A stretch of 64,000 bases of DNA from assembly GCA_963768425.1 (NCBI GenBank), contig CAVYHV010000015.1, forward strand, positions 24,427 to 88,426. Direction: 5' to 3'. The translations under genes and the position numbers were made by a program. The first letter of the stretch is position 1, and every line of letters begins with the position of its first letter. The stretch comes from Candidatus Bathyarchaeota archaeon (GTDB taxonomy: Archaea > Thermoproteota > Bathyarchaeia > Bathyarchaeales > Bathycorpusculaceae). Of the stretch, positions 4,128 through 48,624 are shown in pieces. The notes below the pieces were generated by a model. It ran no database searches. It was given only the letters and a program-made list of their open reading frames with translations, and was not told where the DNA came from.

Positions 4128-4201
4128 GCCGAGGTAGCTCAGCCTGGGAGAGCGCTCGGCTGAAGACCGAGTCGTCGCAGGTTCAAACCCTGCCCTCGGC
4201 A
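4128..4201 (+). tRNA. tRNA-Phe(GAA), no encoded CCA; left anchor of the island
   Basis: GCCGAGG/CCTCGGC acceptor, CTCGG-CTGAAGA-CCGAG anticodon arm, GCAGG-TTCAAAC-CCTGC T-arm. Confidence 0.95.
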
Positions 4202-4322
4202 CATTTTTGCTTATTTTCTGCTTGTTTCTTTCCAATTTCTTGGTTCTTCGCAAAGAAAGGGAAAAATACATTCGCTTTGGCTGTTCAAACCTCCAGGACC
4301 ATAATGTGGTCTGAACTCTGCG
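4192..4322 (+). repeat. conserved unit left arm, copy 1 (interrupted by IS1182; resumes at 5959 to about 5985)
   Basis: >90% identical by eye to 28055-28184 and clearly homologous to 19155-19306. Confidence 0.9.
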
Positions 4323-5958
4323 GAGACTGTGTGAAAAGTCTCTTTCTCTGCTGGCTATTTACCGTTAACCTTAAATCTAGACTAGCTTTAGAGCAACAGA
4401 AAGAGCTGAAAAGCCATGAGCGAACACGTAACAGGCCACCACAGAAATCAGTCAGTTCTCTTCCCAAACACCATCGACGATTACGTCGACAAGGAAAACC
4501 CAGTACGATTCATTGACGCTTTTATAGATAGCCTCAACTTAGAGAAGCTCGGATTCAAGCATTCAGTACTCGCAGACACAGGAAGACCATCTTATAATCC
4601 CTCAGACCTTCTCAAACTCTACGTTTACGGCTACCTCAACCAGGTGAGATCAAGCCGAAAATTGGAGAAAGAATGCCACCGCAACGTTGAGGTCATGTGG
4701 CTGATGAAAAAGCTAGCTCCGGACTTCAAAACCATCGCTGACTTCAGAAAAGACAACGTGGACTGCATCAAAGGCGTATTCAAAGAATTCGTTTACCTCT
4801 GCAGGAGCCTGGATCTTTACGGTGCTCAACTGGTAGCGATTGATGGCACCAAATTCAAAGCGGTAAACTCCAAGAGCAACAACCTCAACGAGAAAACAGT
4901 CGCTTTGAGGCTCAAACAAACAGAAGAAAAGATAGCAGAGTACCTCAAAGAAATGGACCAAAACGATACGGCTGATTCAGCTGAAGATGAAAGCGTCAAT
5001 GCCGATGAGCTCAAGGAGAAAATATGCAAGCTTGAAGAGGAAAAGCAACGATACGAGCAGATTCAAGACCAAATGAAGGCAACAGGCCAGAAGGAGGTTT
5101 CACTTGTGGATCCAGATAGCCGTTTGATGCGGGTAGACAGTCAAAGGCTTGAAGTCTGCTACAACATTCAGACATCTGTGGATGCGAAGCAGCATTTAAT
5201 CGTGGATTACGATGTCATCAATAATTCGACTGATCATCACCAGCTAGCGACCGATGCTAAGGCTGCAAAACAGATGCTTGGCGTTGATCAGCTGGAAGTT
5301 TTGAGTGACAAAGGATTCTATGTTGCAAATGACCTCGTTGAATGTGAGGAAGCTGGGATAACGGTGTTTATGCCGATTCCAGCTTTCAATCCTACTAAGA
5401 ATGTAGGGGTGCCGGAGCCCGAGTTTTGCTCTGACAAGTTTGTCTATATGTTGAGCGAGATGCTTATGTTTGTCCTGGCGGGAGTGAGTTGGAGCTTTTG
5501 AGGCGTAGTTATCGAGGAAAAGAGCAATGTTGGGGTGGTCTTTATGGGACGAAATTCTGTCTGTCTTGTTCTTTCAGGAGTAGGTGCACTAGAAACAAGC
5601 GTGGCAGACGCATGTTCAGGCGGAGTATCAAGATGCTGTGGATAGGTTAAGGGCGAGAGTTAGCAGTTCAGATGGAAGAGCGAAGTTCGTTTGAGGCGTG
5701 AAATAGCGGAGCATCCGTTTGGAACTATTAAGCGAGCGTTCAATCAGGGTTATTTGCTTTTGAAAGGGTTACGGAAGGTTAAGGGAGAAGTCGGATTTAC
5801 TATGCTGGCTTATAACATGAGAAGGGCGATCAATATTCTTGGAGTTGGCACGTTAATGGCTTTGATTAAGGCGTAAAAAAGATAGTAAAGAACAAACGCA
5901 TCTAAGAGCTTGGGTGGGCAAATAATGAGGCTTTAGCTATGAGTTTTGACACAGTCTG
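4323..5958 (+). mobile_element. IS1182-family insertion sequence, 1636 bp
   Basis: TIRs GAGACTGTGTGAAAAGT / revcomp CAGACTGTGTCAAAACT; 4-bp TSD TGCG (4319-4322, 5959-5962); empty site seen at 28174-28191. Confidence 0.9.
4416..5876 (+). pseudogene. IS1182 transposase, split by about three 1-nt deletions (near 5447, 5620, 5683)
   Basis: GRPSYNPSDLLKLYVYGY, APDFKTIADFR, AIDGTKFKA, DKG, EHPFGTIK motifs; reading frames rejoin with single-base additions. Confidence 0.85.
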
Positions 5959-18821: not shown

Positions 18822-19127
18822 GGTTACACCATATTTCCACCGTACCATCCGTAGCCTTATAAGCGGTCGCTTTTAATCATGGATCTTTAAGAAACCAAAA
18901 AAATTTCACCTTCAGCATTCTTGCCGAAGAATCAACGGCTTAAGCCTTCAAAAACTTCAATAACGGTGTAACTTTGTATTTTAAGGGCAAAATTGAACCT
19001 TTAAATAGCACATACATTAGCTTTCACCGCCGTTTTGTGTTCACTGGTGTTGTCAGCCTCAACACTTAAAACAGATGCCCAGAATTCGGCTGATTGGCGC
19101 TTATACACATAGTCAAAATATCCTAGT

Positions 19128-19165
19128 GACGGTTTAAACGACGGCGTCAAGCTAGCCCTCGGCAC
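19128..19165 (+). repeat. att-like site R1
   Basis: GACGGTTTAAACGACGGCGTCAAGCTAGCCCTCGGCAC; last 11 nt equal tRNA-Phe 4192-4202. Confidence 0.9.
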
Positions 19166-27841: not shown

Positions 27842-27971
27842 GAGGCTGTGTAAAAACTCAAATCGAGTTCAAAAAATTGCCTCAAATGTGCATTGAAATT
27901 TTTTTTAGGCCAGCATTATTTGCATGAAGCCAGCAATTTTCTGAGATCAAGAATAGTTTTTACATAGTCTG
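27842..27971 (-). mobile_element. 130-bp MITE with IS1182-type ends, copy 1
   Basis: TIRs GAGGCTGTGTAAAAACT / AGTTTTTACATAGTCTG; TSD GACA (27838-27841, 27972-27975). Confidence 0.85.
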
Positions 27972-28027
27972 GACACGGGTCAAATCCCGCCCGACCCACT
28001 CCCAAGGCACACATTTAAGGTTCTAAC

Positions 28028-28065
28028 GACGGTTTAAACGACGGCTTCAAGTTAGCCCTCGGCAC
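28028..28065 (+). repeat. att-like site R2
   Basis: GACGGTTTAAACGACGGCTTCAAGTTAGCCCTCGGCAC. Confidence 0.9.
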
Positions 28066-30543: not shown

Positions 30544-30725
30544 GAAATCTTGGAATTGTTCTTGGGGGACTCCTTTTACGGAGTCTTTCAACACAATAAA
30601 CTGTGTTGGAATCCCAACGGGCCGCCATAAGAATTTTTTAAGAAGAATTGAGGATTCGCTTAGCGCGCGCTAAAGTGTTTTCAAACGCGCTTGACGCTTT
30701 TAGGCGATTGGACCTGACCCCATTT

Positions 30726-30855
30726 GAGACTGTGTAAAAACTATTTTTAATTTCAGAAAATTGCTGGTTTTATCTAAATAATGTTGGTTTAAAAAAGGAT
30801 TCAAAACATATTTGAAGCAATTTTTTGGGCTTGATTTGAGTTTTTACACAGCCTG
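30726..30855 (+). mobile_element. 130-bp MITE with IS1182-type ends, copy 2 (opposite orientation to copy 1)
   Basis: TSD ATTT (30722-30725, 30856-30859); 107/130 ungapped identity to the reverse complement of copy 1 by manual count. Confidence 0.85.
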
Positions 30856-30900
30856 ATTTGGGGTCAAATCCCACCGGACTCGCACCTTTAAAGTTCTAGC

Positions 30901-30938
30901 GACGGTTTAAACGACGGCTTCAAGCTTGCCCTCGGCAC
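30901..30938 (+). repeat. att-like site R3
   Basis: GACGGTTTAAACGACGGCTTCAAGCTTGCCCTCGGCAC. Confidence 0.9.
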
Positions 30939-31098
30939 TTTTGAGTTCAATAGAAGCTTGTTTTAACAATAAAGTCACACTTTGGAATAATTTGCCTACA
31001 ACTCAGGGATTCGTGAAATATTGAAAATGAGATGAATAGAGTCAAATTGTAGAAATCTTTTTACTTCTTGTTGCTCATAAGGACATAGGCGACTAAAA

Positions 31099-31308
31099 GT
31101 GACCCTAACAATCAATAGCGATGAACTGAAAACTGTCCTTGATAAACTAGATACGGTGAAACTTGAACTTTTACGATTGAGAGCAATGTTGTTGCCAGAA
31201 GAGGAGGCTACGGAACAAGAAAAGAAAGAGATCAAAAAAGCGAAACAAGAACTATCAAAAGGGTCAAGGATAAACCTTAAAGAGTTTATTGATGAACTGG
31301 GCTGCTGA
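31099..31308 (+). CDS. archaeal RelB-like antitoxin
   Basis: 69 aa, acidic LPEEEATEQEKKEI...INLKEF tail, directly upstream of relE. Confidence 0.7.
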   Translation: MTLTINSDELKTVLDKLDTVKLELLRLRAMLLPEEEATEQEKKEIKKAKQELSKGSRINLKEFIDELGC

Positions 31309-31315
31309 CTTCTAA

Positions 31316-31577
31316 TTGTTTGACATCACTGTTGCTCAACGAGCCCAGAAGAGTCCAAGAAGCTGCCTGAACACCTCAAACGCAGAATTGTCGAACTTCT
31401 TTTAATCTTACGGGAAAACCCAGTCCCAGCAGAATACTATGATGTAAAGAAACTGAAGGGACTGGCAGACACATATAGAATTAGAATCGGTGATTTCAGA
31501 ATTATCTATGAAATTTCTTGGGACAAAGCGGCGGTGAATATATTATATATTGGGTCCGGGAAAACGCGTATTCTTGA
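31316..31577 (+). CDS. relE: RelE/ParE toxin (missed by the ORF track; about two 1-nt indels)
   Basis: LPEHLKRRIVELL...DVKKLKGLADTYRIRIGDFRIIYEI; a repaired end reads IG.RENAYS*. Confidence 0.8.
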
Positions 31578-31580
31578 ATC

Positions 31581-31619
31581 GACGGTTTAAACGACGACAT
31601 GAAGCTAGTCCCTCGGCAC
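31581..31619 (+). repeat. att-like site R4 (followed by CA, giving GGCACCA)
   Basis: GACGGTTTAAACGACGACATGAAGCTAGTCCCTCGGCAC. Confidence 0.9.
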
Positions 31620-31839
31620 CAAATATCCTTAATTTAAGGTTATTTTGCAATATTGGGCATAAATTACAACATTATATGCGCTCTGCAAGCAGGGTAATGA
31701 GATATGAAAGAGGGAACGTTTCTACTCATAGACTTTACCGGAAAAGCAAAATATTGATTGAAGCAAACAATACTGCTTCACGATTGGAGGTAACAGATTG
31801 ATTTCGGGGACAAGGGGTCTCCAGATATTTTTATAAATG

Positions 31840-32109
31840 TTAGAGCATTTTTGAAAAGTCATCGTACACTTTGCTTCTATGGCCGACAAAAAGAATGACT
31901 ACTTGGTTTTTGTTTTGGTCTATCTCGTAGATAACTCTGTAGTCGCCTACTCGTAGACTCCAGAAATCTGATTGTTTTAGGGGTTTTCCTGTTTTGTCGG
32001 GGTTTTCACGCAGTTGCTTTGCGCTCTCGACTATTCTTGTTCGGACGTGTTTTTCAGTTTTTTGGAGTTCTTTTGCTGCTTTAGGGTGCAGAAGTACTTT
32101 GAAAGTCAC
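31840..32109 (-). CDS. relE: RelE/ParE toxin
   Basis: FKVLLHPKAAKEL...GKPLKQSDFWSLRVGDYRVIYEID...VGHRSKVY. Confidence 0.9.
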   Translation of the reverse strand: MTFKVLLHPKAAKELQKTEKHVRTRIVESAKQLRENPDKTGKPLKQSDFWSLRVGDYRVIYEIDQNKNQVVILFVGHRSKVYDDFSKML

Positions 32110-32327
32110 TCTAGTTCCTCTATAGGAATGAGGGATTCTGGGCGTTGTTTTGCTTCTTCGCTACGTTCCATGAGTGTGTTGAAGAAGTTGCATGTTTTTT
32201 CGCGTTCTTGATAGTAGGTGATGATTGATTTTATGGCGTCGCTTCGGTTTTTGAAGCGGCCTTCTGCTACCCATCCATCTATTTCCTCGAGGGTTTTTTG
32301 TGGAAGACGTAGTTGTACTTGAGCCAA
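32106..32327 (-). CDS. ribbon-helix-helix antitoxin
   Basis: QVQLRLPQKTLEEIDGWVAEGRFKNRSDAIK; 4-bp overlap with relE. Confidence 0.85.
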   Translation of the reverse strand: MAQVQLRLPQKTLEEIDGWVAEGRFKNRSDAIKSIITYYQEREKTCNFFNTLMERSEEAKQRPESLIPIEELE

Positions 32328-32426
32328 ATATGTCGCCGTAAACAGTACTGTTTACAACTCACTTAAACGTTTCCTAAACAACCATCCGAGTCCCGACCCA
32401 CTCTGTCTTGCGGATAATGGTGCAAC

Positions 32427-32464
32427 GAAGGTTTAAACGACGACATGAAGCTAGCCCTCTGCAC
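32427..32464 (+). repeat. att-like site R5, right boundary of the island (followed by CA, giving GCACCA)
   Basis: GAAGGTTTAAACGACGACATGAAGCTAGCCCTCTGCAC. Confidence 0.85.
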
Positions 32465-42895: not shown

Positions 42896-43627
42896 CTAAA
42901 GAAATCCATTATCCTTAAGTTGCCCAATTGATATTTTGCCAGAATGCAAAGAAGTAGCCACCAACGCCCCTGAAATACCAGTATCCCGCAGCTCAAGCAA
43001 ATCACTGATGTCTCTGACGCCGCCTCCAACGTACAGATTCAACGGCACTTCTGCAAGCACTTTTTTCATAAAATCCATGTTCACTCCTTCGCCGCTGCCT
43101 ACCCGCGCCAAATCCAAAACAATGACTTGTGAAACGCCCATGACCTTGAACTCGTTTAGAAGGCAAATTGGATTCGTGCATCCATTGAATCCCAACTTGA
43201 CAAGGACCTTGTCGCCTCTCAAATCCAAGCTTACAATGACGCGGTCGCTTCCAAACGCTTTTACCGCTTCGCCGACGAAGCTTTTGTTTTGGAGTGTTTC
43301 GGTTCCGATGACAAGTTTTGAAACCCCGTTCTCAAGCAATTTCTCGGCTCGTTCCATTGAGGTCACGCCTGCATCGATCATCAGGTTAAGACCCGTTGCG
43401 TCAGAGATACGTTGGAAAACTTGAAAGTTGGCGGAGCAATCGATTATGGCATCTAAATCAGCAATATACAACTCGCTAAAACCGAGCTTTTTGAAGTCCT
43501 TTGCAACTTCAACTGGGTCGACTGAATTGGACAAGCTGCTTTGAAGGGGTTTATACTCGCTTCTCTTGCCCCTGATAGCATGGACCACGACGCCGTTTAA
43601 AATGTCGATCACTGGTATTGCTTTCAA
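42896..43627 (-). CDS. HisA/HisF-related TIM-barrel protein of C1/methanofuran gene clusters
   Basis: IPVIDILNGVVVHA, LYIADLDAI, LDLARVGSGEG, GGGVR. Confidence 0.8.
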   Translation of the reverse strand: MKAIPVIDILNGVVVHAIRGKRSEYKPLQSSLSNSVDPVEVAKDFKKLGFSELYIADLDAIIDCSANFQVFQRISDATGLNLMIDAGVTSMERAEKLLENGVSKLVIGTETLQNKSFVGEAVKAFGSDRVIVSLDLRGDKVLVKLGFNGCTNPICLLNEFKVMGVSQVIVLDLARVGSGEGVNMDFMKKVLAEVPLNLYVGGGVRDISDLLELRDTGISGALVATSLHSGKISIGQLKDNGFL

Positions 43628-43730
43628 TCTTGCTCGCTAACTGGAATTATTCGTTGCAAATAGAAAAACCTAGCCTTCGTTGAGCAAAACTTTTAAAGCC
43701 TTCATTAATGCGCTTGATTACTGACAACGA

Positions 43731-44471
43731 TTGAAGCTACTAATTAGCCCCGTAAACGCACAAGAAGCCGCCGAAGCTATTGCTGGAGGCGCCACCATAA
43801 TTGACGTCAAAAACCCTCAAGAAGGCGCCTTAGGAGCCAATTTTCCATGGGTCATCAAGCAGATAAAGGAGCTTGCACCGAAAAACGTTCAAGTTAGTTG
43901 CGCTTTAGGCGACATCCCGAATCTTCCTGGTTCTGTGTCGCTTGCAGCCTTGGGTGCAGCTTCGTTGGGGGTTGATTACGTCAAGGTAAGTCTTTATGGG
44001 TGCAAAACAGTTGAGGAAGCACTGTATCTCCTTCAAAACGTTAACAGAGCTGCTAAGGAATGCAACCCCAAAATCAAGGTGGCTGCCGTTGGTTACGCTG
44101 ACGCAAAAAAAACTAATTTGCTAGATCCAAGGCAGGTTCCCGAAGTAGCAGCCAAAGCGCACGTTGAGGTAGCCATGCTTGACACGCAGTTTAAAGACGG
44201 AAAGACCCTCTTCTTCCACCTCTCGGCGGAGCAACTTAAGAAATTCGTTGATCGTAGCCATCAACTGGGTCTTGAAGTGGCGTTGGCTGGGTCACTGCGG
44301 AAGGAAGATTTGCCTGTAGTTTACCGTTTGGGCGCCGATATAGTAGGTTTGCGTGGAGCAGCCTGCACAAACAGAGACCGAGTCAAGGGAGAAATGAAGA
44401 GAGCTCTCGTGGGCGAACTTGTGGAAGTTATCAGTCAAACTGAATTGCAAGCTAACAAGCCGAGGGTTTAA
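43731..44471 (+). CDS. mfnB: (5-formylfuran-3-yl)methyl phosphate synthase
   Basis: MKLLISP..EA..A..GGA.IIDVKNP.EGALGA, MLDT..KDG, LAGSL, GLRGAAC. Confidence 0.9.
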   Translation: MKLLISPVNAQEAAEAIAGGATIIDVKNPQEGALGANFPWVIKQIKELAPKNVQVSCALGDIPNLPGSVSLAALGAASLGVDYVKVSLYGCKTVEEALYLLQNVNRAAKECNPKIKVAAVGYADAKKTNLLDPRQVPEVAAKAHVEVAMLDTQFKDGKTLFFHLSAEQLKKFVDRSHQLGLEVALAGSLRKEDLPVVYRLGADIVGLRGAACTNRDRVKGEMKRALVGELVEVISQTELQANKPRV

Positions 44472-44473
44472 CC

Positions 44474-45613
44474 TTGCATGCAGGCGGCTTAAGCAGGAAA
44501 CTGGTGCTGGCTGAAATTAAAAAAGTCCGGCACTTAGACCAGCGCTACGATGACGGTAAGGTTTTGTGTTCCATGTGTACAAAGCCGCATCCGACGGCGG
44601 AGAAAGCTTACAAGCTCTTTTTGAATTCTAACTTAGGCGACCCTGGACTATTTCCAGGGAGCGTACAGCTTGAACAAGAAGTTGTACATGAATTAGCGAC
44701 CCTCCTTCATGGCGAAAACGGCATTGGACACGTAGTTTCAGGGGGAACCGAAGCTAATTTGATGGCACTTTTAGCCGCAAGAAACACGGCAAATGTCAGC
44801 GCTCCCGAAATCGTTTTGCCTGAATCGGCTCATTTCTCATTCACCAAAGTCTGCAATGTCCTAAAAATAAAGTCAGTGTACGTCAAATTAGACAGCTCTT
44901 TCAGAGTTGACCCAGTTCAGGTTGTGAAATCTATCAGCGAAAACACTATCGCAATCGTCGGGACTGCTGGAACTTCGGAACTGGGTGTGGTCGATCCAAT
45001 CGAGGAACTTTCACGAATTGCGCTAGAGCGCAAGGTTTGGTTACATGTTGATGCAGCCTTCGGAGGCTTAGTTATTCCGTTCTTAGATGGCGACAAACCT
45101 AAGTTTGATTTCTCATTGGAGGCAGTGAAATCTATGACAGTTGACCCTCACAAGATGGGAATGGCTGCCATTCCAGCAGGCGGAATCCTCTTCAGACACC
45201 AAGAAGCCTTGGATTGTCTCAAAACTGAAACGCCTTACTTAACCGATCGATACCAGTACACGTTTGTCGGAACACGAACAGGTGCTGCAGCTGCTTCAGC
45301 ATGGGCAGCTTTTAAGTCGCTAGGCATTGAAGGGTACAGGAAAATCGTCGGCAAATGCATGAAGAATACCCAGCTAATCGCTGACGGACTGGTAGATGAG
45401 GGTTGCAGCCTTGTCGTGCAGCCATCCCTGAACATCGTGGCGTTCCGCAGCAACGGTGGCACTAAACGCATGTCAGAGAGACTTCGACAGAAAGGCTGGC
45501 TTATCTCTTACGTGCCACGGTACGATTGCATAAGAATCGTTGTCATGCCGCACGTTAAGAAGAAGCATGCCGAAGTTTTTTTGAAGGACGTCGCCGGAAT
45601 CGAAAAGCTTTAA
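44474..45613 (+). CDS. mfnA: PLP-dependent tyrosine/aspartate decarboxylase
   Basis: SMCT.PHP, NLGDPGLFPG, SGGTEAN, HVDAAFGG, DPHKMG. Confidence 0.9.
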   Translation: MHAGGLSRKLVLAEIKKVRHLDQRYDDGKVLCSMCTKPHPTAEKAYKLFLNSNLGDPGLFPGSVQLEQEVVHELATLLHGENGIGHVVSGGTEANLMALLAARNTANVSAPEIVLPESAHFSFTKVCNVLKIKSVYVKLDSSFRVDPVQVVKSISENTIAIVGTAGTSELGVVDPIEELSRIALERKVWLHVDAAFGGLVIPFLDGDKPKFDFSLEAVKSMTVDPHKMGMAAIPAGGILFRHQEALDCLKTETPYLTDRYQYTFVGTRTGAAAASAWAAFKSLGIEGYRKIVGKCMKNTQLIADGLVDEGCSLVVQPSLNIVAFRSNGGTKRMSERLRQKGWLISYVPRYDCIRIVVMPHVKKKHAEVFLKDVAGIEKL

Positions 45614-45654
45614 GGTTACGCAGGGTTTCCATCGAATCTTAAAGGGACAATGCT

Positions 45655-46887
45655 TTGAAGATTTTGCTTTACGAGCATGTTTCAGGCGGCGGATACGCAG
45701 GAAAACCACTGGACCAAAGCGTTTTATCAGAAGGGTTCGGTATGCTACGCTGCCTCGCCCAAGATTTCAAAGCTGCAGGAAACGAAGTAACAGTTTTACT
45801 TGATGAACGCATCGCAAAAATGAAGCCGCCTCTCTCAGCTAAAAGCACAGTTCCAGTTTTTCAAGCCCAAGAAGTCGAAAAATCTCTGGTTAACGCTGCT
45901 AAAACTAACGATGCTGTCTACGTTATTGCGCCTGAAACAGGACAGATCCTGCAGTCACTGGTCACTCTCGTTGGGAAAACATCGAAAGTGGCTCTTAATT
46001 GCGAAGCCAGCGCTATTGGCAACGTTGCGGATAAGGCGGTTCTCTACGAGACCCTCAGGAACAACGATTTATACACTCCTGAAACGGTCATCTTTGACGT
46101 TGAGAATGACTTAGCCCAAGTTGAGCGAGAAATCAGAAGTCGACTGAGTTACCCTGTCGTCGTTAAGCCTGTGGATGGTGTTAGCTGCGGAGGATTAAGC
46201 ATCATCCACGAAGACCGTCTATTAGAAACTGCAATCGAGAAAATAAAGTCGACATCATCCGCAAAAAGTTTCATTGCACAAGAGTTCATTTGCGGCGAAA
46301 ACGCGAGCGTAAGCCTGATTTGCAAGGAAGATAAAGCGTTATCAGCTAGCCTGAATAAACAGATCGTTAATCTTTCCGAACCAGAAGGAGCTTCAAGCTA
46401 TGAAGGCGGCGCGGTTCCTTTTGATCATGCGCTAAAGACTGAAGCGTTCAAAGCGGCGGAAAAGGTTGCATCGTGTTTTGTTGGATTGCGAGGCTACGTC
46501 GGGGTTGACTTCGTTTTGGCGCAAGGCAGGGCATTTGTTGTGGATATTAATCCTAGATTAACGACGTCTTATGTTGGTTTGAGCAAAGTTGCTGGTTTTA
46601 ACGTGGCAGAGGCAATGGTTCATGCCGTACTTGATAACAAGTTTCTAGTACAGCAGGAAAACAAGGGGTTCGTTTATTTTTCTAAAGTTCGATTGCCCAA
46701 GCCTTCAATTGATGTCTTCTCTAAGGTCGCTCAAATAGACGGGGTTATTTCACCGCCTTTCCCCGTTGACGGCGAGTCAGAAGCGATTTCGCTGGTGGCT
46801 GCTAATGGCGAATCCATGTCTGACGCGGAGCTGCGGTTCGAAGAAGCTAAAAAGCGGCTGCTCAAGTTATCAGTGGGAGAAAGATAG
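45655..46887 (+). CDS. mfnD: tyramine--L-glutamate ligase (ATP-grasp)
   Basis: YEHVSGGG, EGFGML, IAPE, VKPVDG, GYVGVD, DINPRLTTSY; operon context. Confidence 0.8.
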   Translation: MKILLYEHVSGGGYAGKPLDQSVLSEGFGMLRCLAQDFKAAGNEVTVLLDERIAKMKPPLSAKSTVPVFQAQEVEKSLVNAAKTNDAVYVIAPETGQILQSLVTLVGKTSKVALNCEASAIGNVADKAVLYETLRNNDLYTPETVIFDVENDLAQVEREIRSRLSYPVVVKPVDGVSCGGLSIIHEDRLLETAIEKIKSTSSAKSFIAQEFICGENASVSLICKEDKALSASLNKQIVNLSEPEGASSYEGGAVPFDHALKTEAFKAAEKVASCFVGLRGYVGVDFVLAQGRAFVVDINPRLTTSYVGLSKVAGFNVAEAMVHAVLDNKFLVQQENKGFVYFSKVRLPKPSIDVFSKVAQIDGVISPPFPVDGESEAISLVAANGESMSDAELRFEEAKKRLLKLSVGER

Positions 46888-46888
46888 C

Positions 46889-47959
46889 GTGGTAGACGTG
46901 TTAGGATTTGACATCGGGGGCGCGAACACCAAAGCTGTACTAGTTCGTACGCAAAACGGTAGACTAAAAGACATAAAGCTTGACATCGAGTATTTCCCGA
47001 TTTGGAAAGAACCACAAAAACTCTCAAAAGTCCTCTTGAAGTTGAAGCAACGACTGGGTGCCGAAAGACTCGATGGATTAGGGGTTACAATGACCGCTGA
47101 ATTATCGGATGCTTACCAAACCAAACGTGAAGGAGTTCACAGCGTTATAGCCGGAGTTAAAGAATCGTTTCCTGACACGCCTATCCACGTGCTAAATACA
47201 GATTGCGAGTTGGAGTCGACAGCCAAGGCAGAATTGGCGCCACTTGGGGTAGCGGCTGCAAATTGGGTTGCTACAGGATGGTTGGTTGCCCAGCGAATAG
47301 CCAACTGCGTGATAGCTGACGTCGGAAGCACAAGCACCAGTATAATTCCAGTCGCTTCAGGGAAAGTGGCTGCACTGGGCAAAACGGATTTGGACAAACT
47401 AATTTGTGGAGAGCTTGTTTACACGGGAGGTTTAAGGACAAATGTCGCGGCAATTGTCCAATCCATTCCTGTCAGAGGCGGAGTAGCCAGCGTGGCATCT
47501 GAAATGTTTGCGCTATCCGCAGATGTCCACATAATCTTAGGCCACATCACAGAAGCGCAGTACACTAGTGAGACTGCGGACGGACGCGGCAAGACGTTAC
47601 GTGAAGCCTATGCAAGGTTAGCTAGGGTAGTTTGCGCTGATACAGACATGTTGACGAATCAGGAAATATTTGAGATGGCAAAATACATCTACCTCAGCCA
47701 ACTTTTGCAAGTTACCCAAGGCTTAACCAAAGTCTACTCACACGTTAAAAAGCAAGCGAAAAACGAAGTTTCAATCGTGGTCACGGGTCTCGGTAAAGAT
47801 TTTATCGCAAGAAAAGCAGCTGAAAAAATCGGCGCTGACTCTATCTTCGATTTGGGAACCTTTCTGCCAAAAGAAATGTCGATGGCGACGCCTGCTTTCG
47901 CAGTTGCATTGATGACAGCGAACAAGATTGAGGGGGAGACAATCTGTTGGACGCAGTAA
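46889..47959 (+). CDS. mfnF: methanofuran ether-forming synthase (hydantoinase-A-like)
   Basis: GFDIGGANTK, TMTAELSDAY.TKREGV, DVGSTST, ELVYTG.LRT; GTG start after the mfnD stop. Confidence 0.85.
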   Translation: MVDVLGFDIGGANTKAVLVRTQNGRLKDIKLDIEYFPIWKEPQKLSKVLLKLKQRLGAERLDGLGVTMTAELSDAYQTKREGVHSVIAGVKESFPDTPIHVLNTDCELESTAKAELAPLGVAAANWVATGWLVAQRIANCVIADVGSTSTSIIPVASGKVAALGKTDLDKLICGELVYTGGLRTNVAAIVQSIPVRGGVASVASEMFALSADVHIILGHITEAQYTSETADGRGKTLREAYARLARVVCADTDMLTNQEIFEMAKYIYLSQLLQVTQGLTKVYSHVKKQAKNEVSIVVTGLGKDFIARKAAEKIGADSIFDLGTFLPKEMSMATPAFAVALMTANKIEGETICWTQ

Positions 47960-48624
47960 TGGTCAAAGTCGGCGGAAGCCTTGCATTGCAACCGGATAAA
48001 CTGAGAAGCTTATGCGGAAAATTGACCGAGTTTTCTTATGCACACAAATTAGTTATATTGCCGGGAGGCGGCGAATTTGCCGACGCGGTCAGAAACTTAG
48101 ATGAGCGATTCCATTTGTCGCCTAAGATTTCTCATCGCATGGCGATTTTAGGGATGGATCAATATGGGTTGCTGCTGTCTAACCTGCTGGCGGGTTCAAA
48201 GCTTGTTTATGAGCTTGATGATCTGCAAGAAATCCTCAATTCAGGTGAGTTGCCAGTTTTTTTGCCGTCGGCTTTCTTGTTTTCTAAAGATGCACTTGAG
48301 AACTCGTGGGATGTTACTTCTGACACTATCGCCGTCTATATTGCAAGCCAACTGGGCTTATCCAAAGTTGTCTTAGTGACTGATGTTGATGGAGTCTACT
48401 CCAGTGACCCTAAGAAGTTTTTAAATGCAAAATTGATCAGGAAGTTGTCCGCTTCCAAGCTCCTAAAAATGAGCGAGAGAACGAGCGTTGATAAGTTCTT
48501 GCCAAAACTAATCTTGCAGTCCCAGCTTGAATGTTTCGTCGTAAATGGGCTACATTCCCAGCGCATCAAGGCAATCTTAACTGGAAAAGAAACAGTTTGC
48601 ACCAAAATAACCCGAAATCCATAG
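47947..48624 (+). CDS. mfnE: [5-(aminomethyl)furan-3-yl]methyl phosphate kinase (amino-acid kinase fold)
   Basis: VKVGGSL, PGGGEFAD, HRMAILGMDQYG, SWDVTSD, TDVDG. Confidence 0.85.
   Translation: MDAVMVKVGGSLALQPDKLRSLCGKLTEFSYAHKLVILPGGGEFADAVRNLDERFHLSPKISHRMAILGMDQYGLLLSNLLAGSKLVYELDDLQEILNSGELPVFLPSAFLFSKDALENSWDVTSDTIAVYIASQLGLSKVVLVTDVDGVYSSDPKKFLNAKLIRKLSASKLLKMSERTSVDKFLPKLILQSQLECFVVNGLHSQRIKAILTGKETVCTKITRNP

Follow-up and report, generated by a model that had tools for sequence, protein, structure and literature searches.

Two toxin-antitoxin units bounded by attachment-like sites behind a tRNA-Phe gene of a Bathyarchaeia genome, and their probable nature as integrase-less mini-elements

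The window analysed here is a stretch of 64,000 nucleotides on a contig (C15) of the Candidatus Bathyarchaeota archaeon assembly GCA_963768425.1 (G000; 2.96 Mb, 33 contigs, 91% complete), and its subject is a pair of small type II toxin-antitoxin (TA) units, unit 4 and unit 5, which lie at the far end of an array of repeated sites behind a tRNA-Phe gene. The tRNA-Phe(GAA) gene (4128..4202, plus strand; ARAGORN and Rfam, alignment) is the anchor of the array and its attL side, and alignment showed its last 11 nt, GCCCTCGGCAC, to be present again in each of five sites (R1 to R5). A search of the window located GGTTTAAACGACGRCWTSAAGCT at positions 19131, 28031, 30904, 31584 and 32430, all on the plus strand, with the GGTTTAAAC part of the site beginning at these same positions. 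The five same-strand copies yield a consensus of approximately 40 nt (CGACGGTTTAAACGACGRnnTnAAGCTAGCCCTCGGCAC), for which no match was obtained in dinucleotide-preserving shuffles of the window (0/100, with a chance expectation of 0). Two further copies of the site were identified elsewhere in the G000 genome.

Sites R1 (19127..19165) and R2 (28027..28065), like all five on the plus strand, consist of an arm and the tRNA-Phe core, followed by a left arm of 150 nt that was found by alignment to repeat the 150 nt directly behind tRNA-Phe. As the five sites share the 3' end of tRNA-Phe and this left arm recurs, the region can be described as a tRNA-anchored array of five units, with sizes of approximately 14.9, 8.9, 2.8, 0.64 and 0.81 kb. 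Units 1 to 3 are islands of 3-15 kb with many genes. The last two intervals (642 bp and 807 bp) each hold a single type II TA operon as their sole gene content; the TA genes are the only open reading frames (ORFs), and no genes for recombination or transfer and no integrase remnant were found among them. Both intervals are flanked by direct attachment (att) sites, namely R3/R4 for unit 4 and R4/R5 for unit 5. Site R3 (30900..30938) forms the left boundary of unit 4, and the same site is found to the left of this unit in a related genome, G002. Site R4 (31580..31619) lies between the two units and continues into CCA, with its arm subtype accompanying unit 4 in G002 as well. Site R5 (32426..32464) forms the right boundary of unit 5, its core being CCCTCTGCAC followed by CA, and the same combination of unit end and site occurs in genome G022. 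This arrangement bears out the original prediction for this DNA, in which the two TA pairs were described as discrete units that each fill the space between two sites.

Unit 4 (30939-31580) begins with a non-coding leader of 160 nt (30939..31098, plus strand), in which the first ~35 nt show similarity to the beginning of the long left arm. This is followed on the same strand by an intact gene for a putative aRelB-like antitoxin of 69 aa (31099..31308), which is conserved in G002. No Pfam or NCBIfam match was obtained for this ORF, and its best match in the PDB, aRelB PHS014 of Pyrococcus horikoshii (1wmi_B), was weak (E=0.006). The frame of the aRelE-type toxin (31316..31577, plus strand) matched PF05016 at 5e-8, identifying it as being of the RelE/ParE type; it possesses no in-frame start and its C-terminus is shifted, with frameshifts located near 31349-31353 and 31558. 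In G002, the toxin is encoded by an open frame of 86 aa matching aRelE PHS013 (1wmi_A) at 5.6e-14. The prediction of a RelB-like gene together with relE is borne out for the relE family, with the RelB-like part amounting to the weak match given above.

Comparison of the relE of unit 4 between G000 and G002 revealed three length differences of 1 nt (at ~31338, ~31353 and ~31558), at least two of which break the gene of G000. One base is missing from G000 near 31353 and another near 31558, while near 31338 it is G002 that appears to have gained a base. On a metagenome contig of a relative, an extra A behind position 31348 keeps the relE frame open. The deletion near 31558 turns the C-terminal ...IGSRENAYS into ...IGSGKTRILESTV, such that RENAYS is replaced by GKTRILESTV. 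When the C-terminal shift is repaired, the stop codon of relE is the TGA at 31575-31577, situated 2-3 nt ahead of R4, in agreement with the predicted position of the repaired stop 3 bp before this site. A C-terminal arginine is reportedly required for the activity of aRelE. Judged from these frame-breaking differences, the relE of unit 4 is considered a pseudogene in this assembly, with only the antitoxin being kept. None of the public read runs that were screened for the G000 population contained more than 18% of the sampled words. With its toxin dead, unit 4 cannot at present act as an addiction module or stabilize the array, and the suggestion that it may do so has to be abandoned on this account.

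Unit 5 (31620-32426) opens with a left-arm module on the plus strand (31620..31704), corresponding to the first ~95 nt of the unit, with a recurrent breakpoint at 31704/31705. Its two genes are found on the minus strand. The RelE-family toxin (31840..32109, 89 aa) is intact and matches PF05016 at 6e-14 with 52.8 bits (cut-off 23) and TIGR02385 RelE_StbE with 29.1 bits (cut-off 27.9); its PDB matches comprise 2khe, 9g12, 3g5o_B and 1wmi_A, with matches to RelE reaching down to 2e-11. The antitoxin (32106..32327, 73 aa), of the ribbon-helix-helix (RHH) type, lies directly upstream of the toxin in one operon and overlaps its start by 4 nt. Its match to RHH_1 (6e-4, 20.1 bits) falls slightly below the Pfam cut-off of 20.5, with further matches to the N-terminal RHH of CdrS (7e-8) and to the ParD type (1e-3), and the toxin belongs to the RelE/ParE fold family. 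These scores and the strand of the genes uphold the original prediction of an RHH antitoxin and relE in an orientation opposite to that of unit 4. Upstream of the pair, a perfect palindrome of 18 nt, GTAAACAGTACTGTTTAC (32338..32355), lies beside a TTTAAG box (32362-32367, minus strand), and both are conserved ahead of the majority of the homologous pairs in relatives. These features may represent the operator and promoter of the RHH-relE operon, and unit 5 is a candidate for a working TA system with an intact RHH-RelE pair. Within units 4 and 5, the TA module was not found to be surrounded by direct repeats above the level of chance; for unit 5, 20 of 200 shuffles scored equally well.

The site itself was found to consist of a conserved arm of ~30 nt, in which two CGACGG repeats surround GTTTAAAC, followed by a variable core of 11 nt. 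Variants of the core equal the 3' ends of real tRNAs, these being GCCCTCGGCAC for tRNA-Phe, ACCCCCTGCAC for tRNA-Leu(TAG) and GCCCGCAGCAC for tRNA-Ser(CGA), and many copies of the site continue into CCA. A sequence model of the site matched 48 of 101 genomes belonging to the genus, each containing 1-8 copies, and the pattern was not found when 16 genomes representing other genera of the order were searched. Most of the copies that were examined form same-strand clusters immediately downstream of tRNA-Phe. A metagenome scan using the exact Phe-type site yielded 29 contigs, one of which adds a unit 5 TA pair beside the site and none of which adds a unit 4. Folding of R3, R4 and R5 on both strands was no better than that of shuffled sequences (z-scores of +1.0 to -0.6); the site does not fold as a hairpin and is thus not an integron attC. 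A possible GGC...GCC covariation within the arm was judged by eye only and was set aside as unconvincing.

Further copies of the arm and site were located on other contigs of G000. A Ser-like site with a core differing at 2 nt lies ~390 nt behind tRNA-Ser(CGA) (C24:5960-6509), two further sites with the Ser core are situated near a contig end (C13:100595-102165), and the 150-nt left arm is found behind tRNA-Leu(TAG) (C30:73342-76898). These are signs of two further arrays in the same genome.

A tyrosine integrase was found to be linked to the site in relatives. In G022, a tyrosine recombinase encoded on the opposite strand comes immediately after tRNA-Phe (PF00589, 1e-15; frameshifted in its N-terminal part); ~2 kb further on lie an RHH-RelE pair of the same type as that of unit 5 and then the site, for a total of 3.8 kb. 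The element of G104 extends from tRNA-Leu(TAG) through an intact integrase and 26.9 kb of DNA to a site bearing the Leu core, and in G084 an integrase lies directly behind the last site of a Leu-type array. Remnants of the integrase C-terminus were detected behind the terminal sites in G107, G070 and G022. As the site ends integrase-bearing elements in these relatives, it can be regarded as the right-end attachment arm of the elements of this integrase family. Of the 101 genomes, 93 contain this family, and in at least nine of these it is located directly 3' of tRNA-Phe. At the left end of the full elements, the integrase gene reads toward the tRNA, and it stops ~35-60 nt from the core (G022, G084 and G104), from which it follows that integration does not split the gene, unlike in SSV-type integration.

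In G000, no match to PF00589 was found on the entire contig that carries the window, and no integrase remnant was detected behind tRNA-Phe or behind any of the array sites (tblastn with E up to 10; C-terminal hidden Markov model). Homologues of the integrase are encoded on other contigs only, the closest being 63% identical to the enzyme of G084 and situated beside another tRNA. Since the array contains no integrase and no close cognate was seen in the 91%-complete assembly, the array may be immobile at present.

Comparison with related genomes showed that both units recur elsewhere together with their sites, as the original prediction had led one to look for. The G002 version of unit 4, inclusive of both sites, shows 90% identity and is the second and last unit behind tRNA-Phe, after a gene-less unit of 186 bp, as against the fourth of five in G000. 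Unit 5 is 92-94% identical in G045, G060, G022 and G080, and 97% identical on one metagenome contig; in G045 it is the third of three units, and in G060 it is found on a contig other than that of tRNA-Phe. No relative was found to carry these TA pairs at the present position minus the sites. The methanofuran operon, which served as a housekeeping reference, shows an identity of only 65-70% between these genomes and G000. The arrays cannot be aligned beyond the units and the neighbours differ between species, with homology to the relatives beginning and ending at the sites or at the recurrent internal joint at 31704/31705.

Given unit identities of 90-94% against 65-70% for the housekeeping reference, together with unrelated neighbours, it would follow that units already reduced were transferred. 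The reduced form of unit 5, in which the left arm is joined directly to the TA pair, is common to G000, G045 and G060, and its spread must therefore postdate the reduction. The left arm itself (~95 nt) was also found behind tRNA-Phe or a site and before other cargo in G010, G107, G080, G012, G070 and G083. In G080, the left arm, the TA pair and the site occur as in unit 5, with 3.7 kb of cargo between arm and TA pair. Larger relatives are thus known for unit 5 (G022, G080), which may derive from an integrase-bearing element by deletion, and none was found for unit 4. The pattern as a whole forms our main argument that the units were transferred as small site-bounded pieces, as opposed to each having been formed in place.

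Cis-mobilizable elements (CIMEs) are units flanked by att sites that have been described in streptococci, along with gene-less microCIMEs, and are known there from tandem site-specific accretion at the 3' ends of tRNA or protein genes (PMC7563491; reviewed in PMC5704250). With moderate confidence, units 4 and 5 can be interpreted as CIME-like mini-elements without an integrase, bounded by att sites and belonging to a family that targets the 3' end of tRNA-Phe in one genus of Bathyarchaeia. In this interpretation, sister elements target tRNA-Leu(TAG) and tRNA-Ser(CGA). Repeated integrations at one tRNA would stack elements in tandem, and members without an integrase would retain both arms, so that they could be excised or carried along through the action in trans of a related integrase, or upon integration of an incoming element at an adjacent position (accretion). 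Each of units 4 and 5 would have been reduced to both arms and one type II TA operon, which probably persists and spreads as an addictive, selfish element. The best reading of the TA units would then be as mini-elements of this tRNA-targeting integrase family that were recently exchanged between species; mobilization in trans is a presumed step, as would be any stabilizing role of unit 5.

A more far-reaching reading, put forward tentatively and with considerable doubt, is that the arm with its exchangeable 11-nt tRNA-matching core constitutes a retargetable cassette system served by an integrase in trans. TA operons of less than 1 kb with two arms would in that case be autonomous and the smallest transferable units, capturable at tRNA-Phe, tRNA-Leu(TAG) or tRNA-Ser(CGA) wherever the integrase is present, and would make up a functional analogue of the integron built from ordinary att sites.

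A number of observations weigh against the interpretation as CIME-like mini-elements. Neither excision products nor empty junctions nor circular forms were observed, the contigs examined being without joints and the source reads not being public. Other small units are gene-less (186 bp, G002) or carry genes that are not TA genes (714 bp in G013; 1.4 kb with other genes in G111), and small size is thus not tied to TA content. For the same reason, the description of the TA cassettes as the smallest mobile units of the system does not stand, the unit of G002 being smaller and that of G013 holding no TA pair in 714 bp. The integrases adjacent to the site are only ~52% identical to each other (G022 versus G084) despite the well-conserved arm, which bears on the question of which protein reads the arm. 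At tRNA-Phe, the majority of this family's integrase-bearing elements do not terminate in the site. Finally, the unit 5 TA module may have spread by a route for which the site is not needed, as copies of it occur off the arrays.

These off-array copies of the unit 5 TA module in the genus are 83-89% or ~70% identical and have no site within 1.5 kb. They include TA-only inserts of ~580-615 bp, several of which lie between long direct repeats of their target (L042, L044, L046, L040, L051). The repeats comprise 77 nt of the end of a Cas4-like gene in G066 (seemingly the same locus is occupied in G061, with no upstream repeat retrieved there), 35-36 nt of the end of a membrane-anchor gene in G059 and G054, and 63 nt of the 3' half of tRNA-Ser(GCT) in G051. 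They look like att duplications made by other integrases around the same minimal cargo. The off-array copies generalize the idea of TA cassettes as minimal mobile units, yet they also allow for a TA module with its own way of moving.

That the unit 5 TA module is itself mobile, having inserted into an att-bounded unit that was already in place without genes, through a separate mechanism making or using long target duplications, so that the flanking by the site would be secondary, is nevertheless thought quite unlikely. The recurrence of the ~570-bp module (~31820-32392) between other long repeats (G066, G059, G054, G051 and apparently G061) is in line with this, as are a membrane-anchor-like fragment between module and site in G045 and G080 and the existence of gene-less units (186 bp, G002). 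However, no direct repeat above chance surrounds the module within unit 5, the left arm, the TA pair and the site travel jointly in several species, and the other repeats resemble ordinary att duplications of other integrases. It is also unlikely, albeit a little less so, that the units are immobile fossils, each formed in place by deletion within a larger element and never moving, with the TA pair kept as its loss would be lethal. Larger versions are known, both with an integrase (G022) and with 3.7 kb of cargo (G080), the array has no integrase, the relE of unit 4 is decaying, and a distal position suits the oldest elements (PMC7563491). These points are offset by the finding that reduced forms sharing their internal joints and bounding sites are 90-94% identical across species that are otherwise 65-70% identical, and stand beside unrelated neighbours.

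An integron-like platform in the true sense, in which cassettes with promoters of their own would be taken up at a fixed position beside tRNA-Phe and reshuffled on demand by a recombinase dedicated to this task, appears improbable. The ordered same-strand array of five sites and the variation of unit order between species would fit such a platform, and TA cassettes are typical of chromosomal integrons, with integrons also existing in Archaea (PMC9668308). The sites do not fold as single-stranded DNA, however, and no integrase was found beside the array. Moreover, the units carry genes in both orientations with their own promoters, units 1 to 3 are islands of 3-15 kb with many genes, and the site is the end of ordinary integrase-bearing elements, the integrases linked to it scoring far below the IntI cut-offs. 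The analogy to integron arrays drawn in the original prediction is accordingly rejected, neither an attC-like site structure nor a neighbouring integrase having been found. Least credible of all, and very improbable, is a repeat whose role, regulatory or otherwise, is unrelated to recombination (such as that of a promoter containing a TTTAAA box) and which recurs by chance between genes. The site does contain the TATA-like GTTTAAAC, and the genes of unit 4 read away from R3. Against this, 11 nt of the site co-vary with three different tRNA 3' ends, the sites cluster downstream of those same tRNAs, homology with the relatives begins and ends exactly at the sites, and the genes of unit 5 run in the opposite direction.

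Returning to the interpretation as CIME-like mini-elements, the units of G000 resemble the streptococcal CIMEs in that direct att sites flank units without integrase or transfer genes, and in their tandem stacking with related elements at one target gene. In the streptococcal accretions, the most decayed units are found farthest from the target gene (PMC7563491), as is the case here, and gene-less micro units are represented by that of 186 bp in G002. They differ in the archaeal host and in having no conjugation module in sight, in an array without any resident integrase-bearing partner, in two units cut down to exactly one TA operon, and in one conserved arm that is paired with 11-nt cores for three tRNAs. 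Arrays of elements with tyrosine recombinases at archaeal tRNA genes have been surveyed in Thaumarchaeota, where the smallest element is 2.6 kb (PMC6563490). Integration at tRNA 3' ends, reuse of the site resulting in arrays and TA genes among the cargo are shared with those arrays; the thaumarchaeal elements carry an integrase and measure at least 2.6 kb, as opposed to units of 0.64 and 0.81 kb without one.

TA cassettes are common in chromosomal integrons and in clusters of attC sites lacking integron-integrases (CALINs), including those of archaea, and a role in array stabilization has been proposed for them (PMC9668308). Small TA units parted by a repeated recombination site, and an integrase that may be absent from the cluster, are features that such systems have in common with the array of G000. 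In contrast, no folded attC is found here, the anchor is a tRNA 3' end, the cassettes have their own promoters and occur in both orientations, and the recombinase to which the site is linked is an element integrase of the ordinary kind. As regards the TA pairs themselves, the toxin of unit 4 (intact in G002) matches aRelE of the P. horikoshii aRelE-aRelB complex (PDB 1WMI) at 5.6e-14 and its antitoxin is weakly aRelB-like, with the difference that the toxin is frameshifted in G000. Unit 5 corresponds to the bacterial and archaeal RelE/StbE-RHH pairs in having a toxin of the RelE/StbE family with an RHH antitoxin upstream. The two units have the look of minimal mobile hitch-hikers, which are known in bacteria and have hardly been described in archaea.

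If correct, the interpretation would offer a concrete and testable route for the spread of TA systems among archaeal species without a mobility gene of their own, by means of two short arms and a borrowed integrase, and would extend the concept of CIMEs and accretion from streptococci to Archaea. One arm combined with the cores of three tRNAs would also represent a natural experiment on target switching within a family of integrative elements.

With regard to the sites R4 and R5, R5 (32440-32453) was found to have the same GACGACATGAAGCTAG block as R4 (31594-31607), with the matching unit end in G022 being GACGGTGTCAAGCTAG. This suggests either gene conversion between adjacent sites or a crossover point within the arm.

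A second stacked integration site of G000 was identified on contig C14 (260200-291400), where an intron-containing tRNA precedes an intact integrase belonging to the same family (a 453-aa open frame). Two repeats of the tRNA 3' end, at ~285.6 and ~291.1 kb, each have an integrase C-terminal remnant behind them; these are true tRNA-half repeats and not the arm. The 24-kb spacing of some sites and integrases in G107 and G045 was traced to a different element family at tRNA-Leu(CAG), which also has a true tRNA-half repeat. In G107 (C6:14100-25034), a 10.7-kb integrase element at tRNA-Leu(CAG) ends in a true tRNA repeat of 30 nt, followed by the 150-nt left arm; an integrase-bearing element appears to have integrated here ahead of an older arm-and-site unit.

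The methanofuran operon (42896-48624 of the window) is situated near the tRNA-Phe array in G000, G045, G002, G080 and G022. In G000, its orientation with respect to tRNA-Phe is reversed and its distance from it is greater by 10 kb, pointing to an inversion or a further insertion behind R5.

The Rfam families detected in the window were limited to two tRNAs and the RNase P RNA. Hairpins of 130 nt upstream of R2 and R3 (27842-27971 and 30725-30855) were considered as tRNA-like or structured RNA and rejected as such, being inverted-repeat elements outside the site that are related to an element of the IS1182 type (DUF772 and DDE transposase) at 4323-5958. In at least five genomes, including the arrays of G045, G060, G108 and G095, IS1182-type copies or their hairpin derivatives precede sites by a few tens to ~300 nt, which suggests that this element targets the region ahead of the att arm by preference.

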